A stretch of DNA of 20,580 nucleotides from a virus. Lineage: Duplodnaviria; Heunggongvirae; Uroviricota; Caudoviricetes. Under the pieces are notes generated by a model that made no database searches, was not told where the DNA came from, and worked only from the letters and a program-made list of their open reading frames with translations. This document shows positions 1,877-14,059 of the stretch, in pieces (position 1 is the first letter of the stretch; each line of letters begins with the position of its first letter). The position numbers and the translations under genes were made by a program. The stretch is taken from positions 1 through 20,580 of IMG/VR virus record IMGVR_UViG_2737471827_000003; one strand, given 5' to 3'.

Positions 1877-1906
1877 GTAAGCGACTCGTCAGAACCGTAT
1901 TGATAT

Positions 1907-3478
1907 TTACTGAGAGCTCAGATCAACTTTCCAGGGCAACAGATCGCGTACCCGGTTTGCCGGCCAGTCCTGGATATGTTCAATGACGTAACGCAGCCAC
2001 TTTTCTGGCTCCACATTGTTCAGACGGCATGTGCCGATCAGCGAGTACAACACCGCCGCATGTTCACCACCGCTGTCGGAACCCGCGAACATCCAGTTTT
2101 TCCGGCCTACGGCCACTCCCCGTAAGGCGTTCTCTGCGATGTTGTTGTCGATTTCCACCCAGCCATTACTGCAGTACACGTTCAGTGCATCCCACTGTTT
2201 CAGCAGGTATGCGAACGCTTTTGCCGTATCTGAGTGACGCGACAGTGTTTTCATCTGTTGCTGTATCCAGTCATACAGTGACTGCATCAGTGGCGCGGCT
2301 CTGGCTTTTCTTGCCGCCAGACGCTGTTCTGCTGAACAGCCCCGGACCTCTGCCTCGATGGCATACAGTTCACCGATACGCTGCAGGGCTTCCGTGGTGA
2401 TGTAGGTGGACGCTCTTGCATGCACATCGTGGATTTTTCTCCGGGCATGAGCCATACACGCGGCTTCCGTTATTCTGCCGGATTCGTATAACGCCCGGTA
2501 ACCACCGTAAGCATCGGCCTGAAGCACACCGCTGTAACCGGCCAGGTGATTTTGTGGATGGATACCTTTCCGGTCCGGACTGTACGCGAACCAGACCGCC
2601 GGGGGCATCTGTGAACCGGCGTTACGGTCATCACGGACGTAGACCCACAGCCGGGCTGTCCGGGTTTTACCGCTGCCCGGCTCCTGGACCGGGACGGGGA
2701 TATCATCAGCATGGACTTTACCGGGCATCAGCACATACTGGCGCAGGACGTCATACAGCGGCTCCAGCAGTTCAGCAACAGCACCTGTCCAGCGCCCCAG
2801 TGTGGCACGGCTCAGCTCCACTCCCTGACGACGGTATATTTCTGACTGGCGGTATAACGGCAGATGGTCTGCATATTTCCCGGTGACAACATGGGCCAGA
2901 AGCCCCGCTCCGGCATAACTGCGTGCAATGGGTTTTGAAGGTACTGGTGCCTGCACGATATGGTCGCACCGGCAACAGGCCTGTTTCGGACGTTGTGTTT
3001 CGATAACCTTAAAGGCGCTGCTGATAAGCTCCAGTTGCTCTGACACATCACATCCCAGAGAACTGAGTTCACCACCACAGGCAGGACAGCATTCCTCTTC
3101 CGGCCGGATAACCCGGGTTTCACGGGGAAGTGAGGCCGGTAACGGTTTACGGGCTGAAGACTGGCGCAGGGCGGATGGCAGTACCGGGTCATATTGCTCA
3201 CCCAGCGTTTCCGCCATTTCTTCCTGAAGTGCGCTGATTCGCTCCTGTGCTTCCTGTATCTGCCGTTCGGTTTTTGCACGAAGTTTTTCTGAGCTTTTAC
3301 CGAACTGCATACGTTGCAGTTTCGCAACCAGCGCCTTCAGCCGGTTGATTTCGGAAGCATAAGCCGCCACCCGCTGTGAGAGCAGGCGGTTGTATTCAGC
3401 CATCTGGCGGATGGTGTCCTGTTGCGTCTGCAACAGTGCCCGCAGGCGGGCGTTCTCATGAGCAAGTGAGGTGTCCAT
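1907..3478 (-). CDS. IS66-family transposase (third and largest ORF of the element)
   Basis: 523 aa with an N-terminal coiled-coil/leucine-zipper region, a CxxC...CxxC cluster, and a central/C-terminal region typical of IS66 TnpC-type transposases. Confidence 0.85.
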
Positions 3479-3497
3479 ATCCTCACTTTACAACGGG

Positions 3498-3845
3498 TTA
3501 TATGCGGATTCCAGCGCGTTCCGTTCGTTTCGGGTGCTTCCAGTTGATACCTTCAAGAAGCATGGATAACTGAGCCGGAGTAAGGTGCACCTTGCCGTCA
3601 CGGGTGACTGGCCAGACGAAGCGGCCCCGCTCCAGGCGTTTGGTGAAGAGGCACAGTCCGTCACTGTCAGCCCACAACACTTTTATCTGGTCACCCCGGC
3701 GTCCGCGGAAGATGAACAGGTGTCCGGAGAACGGGTCATCCTTCAGGACGTTCTGAACTTTTGATGCCAGGCCGTTAAAGCCATTTCGCATATCGGTGAT
3801 ACCTGCAACCAGCCAGATACGCGAACCTGCAGGGAGAGATATCAT
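3498..3845 (-). CDS. IS66-family accessory protein, Orf2/TnpB-like
   Basis: 115 aa, MISLPAGSRIWLVAGITDMRNGFNGLA...; conserved IS66 Orf2 signature; start overlaps the upstream ORF (ATGA). Confidence 0.85.
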   Translation of the reverse strand: MISLPAGSRIWLVAGITDMRNGFNGLASKVQNVLKDDPFSGHLFIFRGRRGDQIKVLWADSDGLCLFTKRLERGRFVWPVTRDGKVHLTPAQLSMLLEGINWKHPKRTERAGIRI

Positions 3846-4522
3846 CAGTGGCTGCTCCCTTTTATTTCGCGGATAAGTGTCTGTAATAACGCCGGCGTCA
3901 GTTTACCTTTAAGCCTGAGAGTTCCGGCCGGCAGAACCAGCTCACAACACAGACTGTCGGACGGTGTATTTATCTGCTCTGGTTCCTGTGCGGGGGCCGG
4001 GATTTTATTATCCGGCTCCGGCGTTAACGTCACGGGAAGCAGTGCCGGCATATTTTTTCCGGAAGGCAGCAGGCCACCTTTCCGGTATTGATGGCGCCAG
4101 TTGAAGAGCAGGTTATCGTTGATTCCGTTTTCCCGGGCGATCTGCGCCACACAGGCTCCGGGCTGCAGTGACTGCTCCACTAAGGCGATTTTAAACTCAT
4201 AAGGGAAGTTGGGCCGCCGGGGACGTTTTTTTACCACGGGGGCTTCGGATATAACGGTGCTTTCAGGACGTACGACTGGTACCGTGGAAAATTGTCCGTA
4301 AAGGCAGGCATCAAGTTCCTGCTCCGACATGCCTGCGGGCAAAGGCCACGAAAGGCCAGCTCTCCGAAAGCGCACGAACATACTACAAACTGTTGATTTT
4401 GGTACACCCAGGCGACGCCCGGCCACAACCCGGGGTAAATGTTCTTCAAAGTGAAGACGTAAAGCTTCAGTGATCCAGGTCCGGTGTTTCATACGATAGT
4501 GTCCATTAAAAATGATGGACAT
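3845..4522 (-). CDS. IS66-family accessory protein, Orf1/TnpA-like, with an N-terminal HTH-like extension (true start uncertain)
   Basis: C-terminal part ...RRPNFPYEFKIALVEQSLQPGACVAQIARENGINDNLLFNWRHQYRKG resembles IS66 Orf1. The 225-aa longest ORF is longer than typical, so an internal start is possible. Confidence 0.65.
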   Translation of the reverse strand: MSIIFNGHYRMKHRTWITEALRLHFEEHLPRVVAGRRLGVPKSTVCSMFVRFRRAGLSWPLPAGMSEQELDACLYGQFSTVPVVRPESTVISEAPVVKKRPRRPNFPYEFKIALVEQSLQPGACVAQIARENGINDNLLFNWRHQYRKGGLLPSGKNMPALLPVTLTPEPDNKIPAPAQEPEQINTPSDSLCCELVLPAGTLRLKGKLTPALLQTLIREIKGSSH

Positions 4523-4575
4523 TATTTTTGTAGAGCCGGAGGAAACAGACCAGACGGTTTAAATGAGCCGGTTAC

Positions 4576-4583
4576 GGTGGAGG
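4576..4583. repeat. Target-site duplication (right copy) GGTGGAGG
   Basis: Identical to 1869-1876. Confidence 0.8.
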
Positions 4584-4659
4584 AGCTAAGGGTGATTTTT
4601 AACCAGGTGATTTTTGAATGCTTGCAACATTGATTTCGTAACGTTATTATCCTGCGCCC

Positions 4660-4735
4660 GGCCCTTTAGCTCAGAGGTGAGAGCGAGCGACTCATAATCG
4701 CCAGGTCGCTGGTTCAAATCCAGCAAGGGCCACCA
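4660..4735 (+). tRNA. tRNA-Ile2-like (anticodon CAU, presumably lysidine-modified; formally Met by anticodon)
   Basis: Cloverleaf folded by hand: acceptor GGCCCTT/AAGGGCC, anticodon loop CTCATAA, T-loop TTCAAAT, encoded CCA. Overall strongly resembles E. coli ileX-type tRNA (recalled from memory). Confidence 0.75.
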
Positions 4736-4736
4736 A

Positions 4737-4813
4737 CCGCCACTAGCTCATCAGGAAAGAGCGTCAACCCTTTAAGTTGAGTGTGCGAGGTTCGAGTCCC
4801 CGGTGGCGGTCCA
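4737..4813 (+). tRNA. tRNA, isotype uncertain (anticodon loop CCUUUAA; nominal anticodon UUU, but C at position 33 is atypical)
   Basis: Acceptor CCGCCAC/GTGGCGG, D-stem GCTC/GAGC, anticodon stem TCAAC/GTTGA, T-loop TTCGAGT, encoded CCA; 77 nt. One A:C mismatch in the T-stem. Confidence 0.6.
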
Positions 4814-4815
4814 GT

Positions 4816-4891
<76 letters not shown>

Positions 4892-4894
4892 TAT

Positions 4895-4969
<75 letters not shown>

Positions 4970-4975
4970 GTTAGA

Positions 4976-5021
4976 GTCTTTCAGTCTGCGATGATGGGAA
5001 ATCCCGGAGTGACTGAAAGAC
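4976..5021. repeat. Inverted repeat, 11-bp arms (GTCTTTCAGTC / GACTGAAAGAC) around a 24-nt loop
   Basis: The arms are exact reverse complements (4976-4986 and 5011-5021); the loop contains GGGAAATCCC. Confidence 0.7.
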
Positions 5022-5028
5022 GTTTAAG

Positions 5029-5100
5029 TTATGAATGATCGCTTTTTTTGCAAAATTGCTGTGCAGAAATACTAACCTTCGGGCAGGCGATCATTCATAA
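5029..5100. repeat. Perfect 14-bp inverted repeat (TTATGAATGATCGC / GCGATCATTCATAA) separated by 44 nt
   Basis: Exact reverse-complement arms at 5029-5042 and 5087-5100. Confidence 0.7.
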
Positions 5101-5176
5101 GCACTCTGCTTTTATTCCGATTAACTGTGGGTGGTTTGTTGGATAGAGTGCTTCCCTTTCTGTATATATCGTTTCG

Positions 5177-5200
5177 CCCGCTTTTGCGGGTTTTTCTTTT
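5177..5200 (+). terminator. Rho-independent terminator-like hairpin upstream of the holin gene
   Basis: Stem CCCGC, loop TTTT, stem GCGGG, followed by TTTTTCTTTT. Confidence 0.6.
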
Positions 5201-5260
5201 CAAATCCCTTTCATTTCTCAGTGTAAAACTACGCCATCCGTTATTTGCGGAGGTGAGGCT

Positions 5261-5476
5261 ATGAAATCCATGGACAAAATTTCAACGGGCATTGCCTATG
5301 GCACCTCCGCAGGCAGTGCTGGCTACTGGTTTTTACAGTGGCTTGATCAGGTCAGTCCGTCACAGTGGGCTGCGATTGGTGTGCTGGGGAGTCTGGTTCT
5401 GGGCTTCCTGACTTATCTGACAAATCTGTACTTCAAAATCAGAGAAGACAAGCGTAAGGCTGCACGGGGAGAGTAA
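5261..5476 (+). CDS. S: Class II holin (pinholin), phage 21 S-like, with dual-start motif M1-K-S-M4
   Basis: 71 aa [30 protein letters not shown]...[35 protein letters not shown], close to the phage 21 S holin as recalled; two transmembrane segments; preceded by GGAGG. Confidence 0.9.
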
Positions 5477-5480
5477 TTCA

Positions 5481-5832
5481 ATGACTCAAAACTATGAACT
5501 GATTGTGAAAGGGATCCGCAATTTTGAGAATAAAGTTACGGTAACTTTAGCGTTACGGGACAAAAAAACGCTTTGACGGTGAAATTTTTGACCTGGACAT
5601 CTCGCTGGACCGTGTTGAAGGTGCCGCGCTGGAGTTTTATGAGGCAGCAGCCAGAAGGAGCATCAGACAGGTCTTCCTGGATGTTGCTGCCGGGTTATGT
5701 GAAGGGGATGAGCAGTCGCCGGAAAAGCGCCCCGTAATTTTAGATGCGCAGAATGTGTGGATAACCTACAAAGGAAAGCTACCAGGAAGAATTACTGGTT
5801 CTCTGAAGACTCCTCCGGAATCACAACCTTAA
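5481..5832 (+). pseudogene. Hypothetical lysis-cassette ORF interrupted by a frameshift in an A7 tract (5562-5568); the two halves together would give about 116 aa
   Basis: Frame 0: ATG 5481 ... MTQNYELIVKGIRNFENKVTVTLALRDKKTL, stop TGA at 5574-5576. The frame offset by one continues without a usable start codon: DGEIFDLDISLDRVEGAALEFYEAAARRSIRQVFLDVAAGLCEGDEQSPEKRPVILDAQNVWITYKGKLPGRITGSLKTPPESQP, stop TAA at 5830-5832. Both pieces fall below the ORF-track threshold. Confidence 0.6.
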
Positions 5833-12948: not shown

Positions 12949-13266
12949 ATGGCAGCAATAGTGGAAAAACTCAGGGCACAGTGCCGTATTGATACAGATG
13001 ATGCAACTGATGATGAGTTACTGATGCTGTATTTCCGGGCGGCCTGCCGCAAGGCAGAAAATTTTATCAACCGTAAGCTTTATGAGGAGACGGTGCCGGA
13101 AGGTGATCCTGAAGGGGTGCTTATAGCTGATGATGTTTTGCTGGCGCTCATGTTGCTGGTCGGACACTGGTACGAAAACCGGGAAAATTCCTCAGATGTC
13201 AGCAAGGCACCAGTCCCGTTTGGTTTTTCTTCTCTGCTGGAGCCTTATCGTTTTATTCCTTTGTAG
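12949..13266 (+). CDS. Head-tail connector protein (gp6-like)
   Basis: Start chosen at ATG 12949, after AGGAG at 12938-12942; the ORF-track start at 12916 lies inside the hairpin. Confidence 0.65.
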   Translation: MAAIVEKLRAQCRIDTDDATDDELLMLYFRAACRKAENFINRKLYEETVPEGDPEGVLIADDVLLALMLLVGHWYENRENSSDVSKAPVPFGFSSLLEPYRFIPL

Positions 13267-13274
13267 GAGGAGGC

Positions 13275-13613
13275 ATGCAGGCGGGCAGATTACGTGATCG
13301 CGTAATTATTCTGAATGTCACCACCGCCCGCTCTCCGTCAGGGCATCCGGTGGAGACGGTGACGGAGGGAGCTACCGTATGGGCAGAAGTCAGGGGGATC
13401 AGCGGCAGGGAACGTATGTCTGCTGGTGCAGAAACAGCGCAGGCTACGGTGAGAGTCTGGATGCGTTTCCGGCGTGATGTGACGGCCGCTTCGCGTCTGA
13501 AAGTGCTGACGGGGGCTTATAAGGGAACCATTTTGCATGTTGACGGGCCGCCGATCCCCGATACCAGGTGCAGGCGGCTTGAATTACTGTGCAGTGTTGG
13601 AGGTAAAGGATGA
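13275..13613 (+). CDS. Head closure / head-tail adaptor protein
   Basis: 112 aa; position and size within the HK97-type connector gene series. Confidence 0.6.
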   Translation: MQAGRLRDRVIILNVTTARSPSGHPVETVTEGATVWAEVRGISGRERMSAGAETAQATVRVWMRFRRDVTAASRLKVLTGAYKGTILHVDGPPIPDTRCRRLELLCSVGGKG

Positions 13614-14059
13614 CGGATTTCACCCTGGATTTTTCTGGTCTGGATGATATTGCCAGAGATCTGGAACTTCTCAGCAGAGCGGAAAGCAATAAAGTACTGC
13701 GTGATGCCACCCGTGCAGGTGCTGAAGTTATCCGGGATGCGGTTGTCGAATGTGCGCCGGAGCGAACCGGGAAACTGAAGAAAAATGTGGTTGTTCTGAC
13801 GAAGCGTTCAAAGCGTCGCGGGGAAATTATTTCTGGTATCCACATTCGTGGTCGGAACATGCGAACCGGTAACAGTGATAACAGCATGAAAGCCAGCGAT
13901 CCGCGAAATGCGTTTTACTGGCGCTTTGTGGAACTGGGCACGGTAAATATGCCTGCTCATCCGTTTATTCGTCCGGCCTTTGATACGACAGAGGAACTGG
14001 CCGCACAGGTTGCCATACAGCGAATGAATCAGGCTATTGATGAGGTATTAAGTCAATGA
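13610..14059 (+). CDS. HK97 gp10-family protein (tail-proximal neck component)
   Basis: 149 aa; start overlaps the upstream stop (ATGA), indicating translational coupling; synteny. Confidence 0.6.
   Translation: MTDFTLDFSGLDDIARDLELLSRAESNKVLRDATRAGAEVIRDAVVECAPERTGKLKKNVVVLTKRSKRRGEIISGIHIRGRNMRTGNSDNSMKASDPRNAFYWRFVELGTVNMPAHPFIRPAFDTTEELAAQVAIQRMNQAIDEVLSQ

Follow-up and report, generated by a model that had tools for sequence, protein, structure and literature searches.

We analysed a 20,580-nucleotide stretch of viral DNA (IMG/VR record IMGVR_UViG_2737471827_000003, positions 1 to 20,580; 'the window' below), which represents the late region of a lambdoid prophage of the E. coli type. 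The subject of this study is the segment at 4970-5260, between a cluster of tRNA genes and the holin gene, here called the trailer. An earlier note, made from the letters alone, had described it as structured non-coding DNA at the moron/stx position, and had proposed for it a small structured RNA, a protein-binding operator-like site, a processing signal for the tRNA transcript or the scar of an excised cargo gene. The features of the segment and of the tRNA operon upstream are listed below.

4622-4650, plus strand: tRNA-operon promoter of the sigma-70 type, TTGCAA-17-TATTAT, with the GC-rich discriminator CCTGCGCCC after it (promoter scan)
4660-4969, plus strand: tRNA cluster Met(cat)-Lys(ttt)-Thr(tgt)-Gly(tcc), spaced by 1-3 nt (ARAGORN; Rfam tRNA scores of 44-74 bits)
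4976-5021, plus strand: hairpin 1, an 11-bp stem (4976-4986/5011-5021, 100% complementary) with 24 nt between the arms and a kink-turn-like internal loop
5029-5100, plus strand: hairpin 2, perfect 14-nt arms (5029-5042/5087-5100) with 44 nt between them (repeat finder)
5099-5153, plus strand: hairpin 3, 9-nt arms (5099-5107/5145-5153, 100% complementary), a basal stem and an upper helix
5025-5159, plus strand: conserved core (hairpins 2 and 3), matched by covariance model R1 (cmsearch, 133.2 bits, E = 3.6e-28)
5156-5175, plus strand: single-stranded A/U-rich linker CCCUUUCUGUAUAUAUCGUUUC that joins hairpin 3 to the terminator, unpaired in folds
5176-5200, plus strand: intrinsic terminator GCCCGC-UUUU-GCGGGU followed by UUUUUCUUUU, directly before the holin gene

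Structure of the segment in the window

Both inverted repeats of the earlier note, at 4976-5021 and 5029-5100, were recovered exact to the base by the repeat finder, and its terminator-like hairpin was found by a terminator scan (GCCCGCTTTTGCGGGT + TTTTTCTTTT at 5176-5191, with a T tract to about 5200); the inventory had missed hairpin 3, at 5099-5153. The placement was also correct, with four tRNA genes upstream, the last of which (tRNA-Gly) has its 3' end at 4969, and a 71-aa holin at 5261. Folding, suggested in the note as a check, gave -94.7 kcal/mol for the whole of 4970-5260 (z = -4.64), a value that none of 200 shuffled sequences matched. Folded singly, hairpin 1 (z = -4.05), hairpin 2 (-5.02), hairpin 3 (-3.72) and the terminator (-3.41) each scored well below zero.

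The internal loop of hairpin 1 is made up of C4989-G5009, a GAU bulge (4990-4992), the tandem pairs G4993.A5008 and A4994.G5007, and the helix UGGG/CCCG (4995-4998/5003-5006). Across 45 distinct hairpin 1 sequences its nucleotides show little or no variation, and they appear to fit the published kink-turn consensus, so that hairpin 1 is a candidate k-turn; the loop may also be likened to a box C (AUGAUGG, compared with RUGAUGA) paired with a D-like CGGA. Hairpin 2 consists of a basal stem of 14-17 bp, an inner helix and a conserved apical UUUUUGCAAAAUUGCUGUG in the RNAalifold consensus; a third small helix within it (CUGACC...GGUUCAG) was considered and dropped, being broken in several lineages. 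Hairpin 3 carries a nearly invariant G/U-rich motif, GGGUGGUUUGUUGG, at 5129-5142, and no complement of this motif was found within the window besides the motif's own site. The linker and U tail that follow hairpin 3 recall those of many chaperone-bound small RNAs (sRNAs).

Distribution among enterobacterial prophages

Homologues were gathered by pattern scans of a viral collection, using two independent conserved words, and of one genome per species (GTDB). The element was found in 124 distinct sequence contexts from several enterobacterial genera. Six species were represented in the GTDB scan, namely E. coli, Shigella flexneri, Enterobacter hormaechei, Citrobacter sedlakii, Yokenella regensburgei and Phytobacter ursingii; a seventh match, to a Cloacimonadota metagenome-assembled genome, was a chance pattern match and was discarded. 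Searches with model R1 covered the retrieved homologous and comparison DNA. The constant core comprises hairpins 2 and 3 (5029-5153), while hairpin 1 is optional, missing where tRNA-Gly directly abuts hairpin 2.

The 291 bases of the segment are present at >=90% identity in 522 of 5426 complete E. coli genomes, always in the chromosome and never annotated, and also in four sequenced E. coli temperate phages besides HK639. Over the searches made, homologues were counted in 522-536 of the 5426 genomes (~10%). The HK639 copy (L001, NC_016158.1) is 77% identical, lies between the Q gene and the holins, and has the 3' half of a tRNA-Gly gene before it and a terminator wholly different in sequence after it. 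Only this 3' half is retained 5' of hairpin 1 (44440-44515), where ARAGORN finds only a tRNA-Asn. The HK639 annotation places four terminators in the interval from Q to the holins, three of them before the holin beyond the trailer's own. The element was not found in the K-12 cryptic prophages Qin and DLP12, which were picked for their curated non-coding RNA annotation. In two phage records, ON470583.1 and ON470580.1, the trailer is entered as a 'hypothetical protein' coding sequence (CDS), which is probably a mis-call on a non-coding RNA.

The hairpins are conserved as sense-strand RNA structure

An alignment of 66 distinct core sequences (A2, hairpins 2 and 3) gave an RNAalifold consensus of 37 pairs, with 98.6% of cells in standard pairs. 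Nine pairs had changed on both sides (119 cells), six of them in hairpin 2 (helices 1 and 2) and three in hairpin 3 (helix 3). The covariation score of 0.251 was reached by none of 500 shuffles, and structures slid by 1-3 columns gave 41-50% pairing and scores of at most 0.117. In the alignment of hairpin 1 (A5, 45 distinct sequences), 98.2% of cells were paired, compared with 41-48% in slid structures, and three pairs showed double changes; support from covariation is weaker here because A5 comprises essentially two lineages.

The same alignments indicate the strand on which the structure lies. G-U pairs account for 12.8% (A2) and 17.0% (A5) of paired cells and would be A-C mismatches on the opposite strand, so that pairing on the plus strand (98.6% and 98.2%) exceeds that on the minus strand (86.0% and 82.2%). 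This asymmetry indicates that the structure belongs to the transcript running with the tRNAs and the late operon. The alignments thus show hairpins conserved as sense-strand RNA structure across many enterobacterial prophages, which strongly supports the small structured RNA among the proposals of the earlier note.

A feature of the DNA itself, whether an operator-like palindrome, a cruciform or recombination 'linker' for module exchange, or the scar of lost cargo, is very improbable. It would account for the match between module boundaries and mosaic joints, for the joining of differing tRNA clusters to the same trailer, and for an open reading frame (ORF) in Salmonella phage Fels-1 that has a partial hairpin 2 copy on one side and a complete one on the other. 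The pairing is strand-specific, however, and compensatory change has preserved it, which leaves the operator reading unsupported; the helices are moreover nested with long loops, unlike operators. Nor does a scar describe an intact module that is conserved in many phages.

No protein-coding gene accounts for the conservation

It was considered whether a small protein gene had been overlooked. In the window, the segment contains only mechanical ORFs of <=45 aa. Among relatives, a minus-strand ORF ('MSAEPKGQYFHTAILQKAA...') recurs over hairpin 2; it is present in mechanical ORF lists, and 29 of 31 distinct sequences of the HK639 type keep the frame open. The window copy of this frame, however, reads MNDRLPEG and then meets a stop after eight codons, and the ratio of synonymous to non-synonymous variant codons in the ORF frame (11:32) resembles the ratios in the other two frames (8:35 and 10:37). 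The C-terminal part of the ORF lies antisense to hairpin 1 at some loci and to a tRNA gene at others, and lineages differ by single-base indels over the region. By these measures there is no conserved ORF across the element and no coding signature, and we regard a small protein gene as barely credible. The earlier note had seen no ORF between the tRNAs and the holin; comparison with related prophages, which it had suggested, agreed, with the element recurring in 124 distinct contexts and no conserved protein-coding gene over it.

The trailer is linked to tRNA genes, a promoter and a terminator

Upstream DNA was compared for 114 contexts with a full core. A same-strand tRNA gene lies within 60 nt of the core in 80 of these and farther upstream in another 16; the gap is within 5 nt in 13 contexts and 50-60 nt, the size of hairpin 1, in 67. 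The adjoining tRNA varies with the locus (Gly-tcc, Thr-tgt, Glu-ttc, Arg-tct, Val-tac or Met-cat), which makes the trailer the constant part of the arrangement and the tRNA set the variable part. A match to TTGnnn-17-TAnnnT, with the -10 element ending 9 nt 5' of the first tRNA, recurs in relatives at a constant offset, in about 45 distinct upstream sequences. The position of this promoter is therefore conserved, including in the intact relative PhiR47_1, while its sequence is divergent. In the window its -10 element precedes a GC-rich discriminator such as stable-RNA promoters have.

At the other end, a terminator-like hairpin with a T tract was found 13-44 nt past hairpin 3 in 75 of 113 contexts under a strict rule, and in about 95 of the 113 when weakened, point-mutated GCCCGC...GCGGTTTTTT variants were included. 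At least four unrelated terminator sequences are used after hairpin 3.

The order in PhiR47_1 is Q, late promoter and tR' terminator, a lipoprotein moron with its own terminator, and then the tRNA promoter. Because tR' directly follows Q in this phage, the trailer terminator is not tR' and instead closes a separate, moron-like unit of transcription. (A tR'-equivalent terminator occurs twice in PhiR47_1, after PR' and after the lipoprotein moron.) The tRNAs and trailer thus form a unit that resembles a moron, having a promoter and a terminator of its own, and that lies within the leader of the late operon, after Q/PR'/tR' and before the lysis cassette. The moron/stx slot of the earlier note was loosely right in this respect, although the tRNAs and trailer are themselves the moron-like unit. 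Its right border is marked at 5234, where homology to the lysis cassette of K-12 Qin begins.

The second tRNA gene of the cluster (4737-4813) is homologous across related loci, with the same acceptor, D and T arms and a hypervariable anticodon loop. Its anticodon is Lys-UUU in the window and Arg-UCU, Phe-AAA/GAA, Leu-UAA, Ser-UGA or the ochre-suppressor-like UUA elsewhere. Many copies have shortened loops of 5-6 nt that ARAGORN could not decode, and the window copy has U instead of A preceding CCA. This gene might be a decoy or an escape variant against anticodon nucleases.

A proposed stable trailer RNA and its alternatives

Comparison of the loci itself documents, in sequence, the promoter-tRNAs-hairpins-terminator architecture, conservation at the RNA level and linkage to tRNA genes. 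With a probability of roughly 55%, we interpret the region as the conserved structured 3' trailer (3' external transcribed spacer, 3'ETS) of an autonomous prophage tRNA operon that yields a stable non-coding RNA. In a lysogen, the tRNA promoter would be active and transcription would stop at the terminator, which would leave the lysis genes silent. Maturation of the 3' end of the last tRNA (by RNase E and exonucleases in E. coli) would part the tRNA from the trailer, leaving an RNA of ~230 nt, or of ~150-175 nt in variants without hairpin 1. With a 5' hairpin a few nucleotides past the CCA and a terminator hairpin at its 3' end, this RNA should be stable and discrete. During lytic growth, Q-modified polymerase from PR' would read through the terminator, and after excision of the tRNAs the same hairpins would form the 5' end of the lysis mRNA. 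The k-turn-like loop, the apex of hairpin 2 and GGGUGGUUUGUUGG are conserved beyond the needs of pairing, which suggests a protein or RNA partner.

Several observations weigh against this interpretation. No tRNA was present in the upstream DNA examined for 18 of the 114 contexts (~16%), and about 15% of contexts are without an obvious terminator. Some of the invariance of the G/U-rich motif stems from the search pattern used to fetch the loci, which fixed part of the 3' arm of hairpin 3 to purines (the matching pyrimidines opposite were not forced); independently fetched homologues had only minor variants of the motif (GAGUGG..., GGUUGG... and one-base insertions). The hairpins are also separable in evolution: hairpin 1 is missing at some loci, hairpin 2 stands alone in L189, L228 and Fels-1, and hairpin 3 stands alone in L143. 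Such separability fits independent cis-acting modules better than one integrated RNA machine. Finally, we infer the existence, ends and stability of the trailer RNA from sequence features, and a function in trans is putative, with a purely cis role as its strong rival.

In a purely cis arrangement, which we hold possible though doubtful, there would be no function for a free RNA: the terminator would shield the lethal lysis genes from constitutive transcription begun at the tRNA promoter, and the hairpins would be individual processing or stability elements. They could serve as a block to exonucleases, a signal for tRNA 3' maturation, a protective 5' stem-loop of the lysis mRNA or RNase III sites in long stems. 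Consistent with this, the hairpins are modular, the terminator is directly upstream of the holin, and hairpin 1 or 2 begins 0-7 nt past the CCA end of the tRNA. A protective 5' stem-loop of the ompA type must be at the very end of an RNA, and the offset of 0-7 nt fits. The lone hairpin 2 of Fels-1 lies 13 nt past the stop codon of a moron ORF, the position of a 3' stabilizer. On the other hand, the loop sequences and the k-turn-like loop are conserved well past what a nuclease barrier would need, and terminators of unrelated sequence, recurring a similarly short way past hairpin 3, suggest that selection has favoured a defined RNA 3' end and not just termination at some point ahead of the holin. 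The processing signal proposed in the earlier note belongs here: it is compatible with an element that abuts tRNA 3' ends in most contexts, and it stays the main rival, or complement, to a stable trailer RNA.

In Fels-1 (L272, NC_010391.1 ~12990-13740), the degenerate 3' half of a tRNA-Gly gene comes first, then a hairpin 1 that has decayed and the beginning of a hairpin 2 copy. Next is the ORF STM0906.1n, after which hairpin 2 is found intact and hairpin 3 is missing. A cargo gene thus appears to have been inserted at the hairpin boundary.

A more specific possibility is that the trailer represents a new class of tRNA-linked structured RNA that acts with the phage tRNAs, either as a tRNA binder or sensor, or as a decoy or shield against host anticodon nucleases or RNases. 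The first idea derives from the k-turn and the T-box-like GGGUGGU motif; the second fits the neighbouring tRNA-like gene with its hypervariable and often truncated anticodon loop. We consider this proposal unlikely.

A possible regulator of terminator read-through

It is also conceivable, though improbable in our estimation, that the structure is a read-through regulator of the lysis genes, such as a put-like RNA that alters RNA polymerase, a riboswitch, or a T-box-like leader whose fold sets whether the terminator downstream works. A structured RNA is placed immediately 5' of one or more terminators (with three more before the holin in HK639), and a put-like RNA is annotated in the early operon of HK639. 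The k-turn-like loop of hairpin 1 and the GGGUGGU of hairpin 3 also recall what we take to be features of T-box leaders. A T-box or riboswitch match was, however, not obtained in Rfam at E up to 10, with either the window or HK639. The terminator does not overlap hairpin 3; a pairing of the hairpin 3 loop with a terminator arm, judged by eye, is possible in single lineages and not common across terminator types, and the use of unrelated terminator sequences makes a conserved alternative pairing implausible. Antiterminator competition of the T-box kind was ruled against, as hairpin 3 and the terminator are separate and the terminators after hairpin 3 are unrelated. These phages moreover encode Q, already a suppressor of terminators.

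The put RNAs of HK022 and HK639 resemble the trailer in being cis-encoded, multi-hairpin phage RNAs upstream of terminators, and HK639 has both a put-like RNA and a trailer. They differ in being in early operons, while the trailer is in the late-operon leader 3' of Q, and no common sequence or architecture was seen. With filters off, R1 found nothing better than E = 1.7 in HK022 30000-40751 and HK639 28000-41500; the HK639 stretch includes the annotated putL-like RNA (34187-34312), and coverage of the HK022 sites is unconfirmed, as the annotation marks no put sites.

Comparison with known RNAs

The Rfam scan suggested in the earlier note returned no family other than tRNA: with release 15, only the four tRNAs of the window reached the gathering score. 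At E up to 10, the best trailer match was to a C/D-box snoRNA model at the hairpin 1 loop (15.3 bits, compared with a gathering score of 70), and hairpin 3 with the terminator of HK639 matched istR (26, compared with 45). A full-text search of a literature library for conserved 13-18-mers found no paper containing them, and a search for tRNA-trailer RNAs in prophages found nothing matching.

The 3'ETS-leuZ RNA of E. coli is reportedly a sponge of sRNAs that is cut from the 3'ETS of the tRNA operon glyW-cysT-leuZ, as Lalaouna and colleagues are said to have described in 2015. Both it and the trailer would be tRNA-operon trailer RNAs, with a 5' end from tRNA 3' processing and a 3' end at the intrinsic terminator of the operon; the trailer indeed lies directly 3' of the last tRNA on the same strand and ends at an intrinsic terminator. 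3'ETS-leuZ differs in its size of ~50 nt, being essentially the terminator, whereas the trailer would have 150-230 nt and three conserved hairpins, and the sequences are unrelated. The comparison is one of architecture, and Hfq binding and sponging are not attributed to the trailer. The T4 species 1 and 2 RNAs (rnaC, rnaD) are stable, structured non-tRNA RNAs at the end of a phage tRNA cluster that are released by processing. They are likewise phage-encoded and at a tRNA-cluster end, but belong to a virulent phage, while the trailer is in the late-operon leader of temperate lambdoid phages. In kind, 3'ETS-leuZ and these T4 RNAs cotranscribed with tRNAs appear to be closest to the trailer, with a common architecture and no common sequence.

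Less close are rrA, rrB and rrF, small RNAs of E. coli rRNA operons that lie between the dual terminators (PMC8144298), which are also the tail of a stable-RNA operon transcript, but which are made when transcription continues past the first terminator and are unrelated in sequence. PasA, PasC and PasD are prophage sRNAs by the holin or late promoter in enteropathogenic and enterohaemorrhagic E. coli (EPEC and EHEC; PMC8550237; bioRxiv 10.64898/2026.05.13.724894), and StxS is a further RNA of this region (PMC7547250). Like the trailer, the Pas RNAs and StxS occupy the Q-to-holin leader slot of lambdoid prophages and have a 3' end at an intrinsic terminator; they are expressed in lysogens. Relative to the late operon, PasA and PasC run antisense and the trailer sense, and the Pas RNAs and StxS are without linkage to tRNAs. 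Comparison by blastn of PasA, PasC and PasD (sequences from NC_011601.1, strain E2348/69, by the coordinates of table S6 in PMC8550237; PasB was outside the comparison) with the window gave only chance matches (E >= 0.4).

Neighbouring genes of the window

The remaining features of the late region are given below.

1047-1742: Q antiterminator gene
1806-1832: tR' terminator (AAAACCCGCCCACAAGCGGGTTTTTTT), at the end of a short leader directly after Q
1877-4575: IS66-family insertion of ~2.7 kb, with tnpA/B/C-like ORFs on the minus strand
From 5261: lysis cassette, with the 71-aa dual-start holin at 5261, a ydfR-like gene, endolysin and Rz/Rz1

Together, tR' and a candidate region for the late promoter occupy 1745-1832 and would yield a short, StxS-like PR' transcript. 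The IS66-family element has imperfect terminal repeats (GTAAGCG.../...CGGTTAC) and is flanked by an 8-bp duplication, GGTGGAGG, at 1869-1876 and 4576-4583. It sits between tR' and the tRNA promoter and so parts Q and PR' from the tRNAs and lysis genes; the tRNA unit retains its own promoter despite this insertion upstream.

A hairpin at 5232-5255 covers the Shine-Dalgarno sequence of the holin gene (GGAGG, 5249-5253), just 5' of the dual-start motif MKSM. It resembles the sdi structure of lambda S, and homology to the Qin essQ leader begins here, at 5234. The ydfR-like gene (5481-5740), between holin and endolysin, is broken into two ORFs by one additional A in the run at 5562-5568 (seven A in the window, six in PhiR47_1), and is either a frameshifted pseudogene or the product of a sequencing error.

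Implications

If the trailer accumulates, it would be an undescribed and widespread prophage non-coding RNA, present also in prophages of Shigella, Enterobacter, Citrobacter, Yokenella and Phytobacter and expressed in lysogens from a housekeeping-type promoter. It would be a temperate-phage addition to the few known tRNA-operon trailer RNAs, and a candidate k-turn RNA in an E. coli-type host; to our knowledge, such a host has no L7Ae-type proteins. For annotators, the covariance model covers a region that is now blank, or mis-called in some phage records. A transcription unit that ends at its own terminator would also account for how a constitutive tRNA moron can be carried right beside the holin gene without death of the lysogen.

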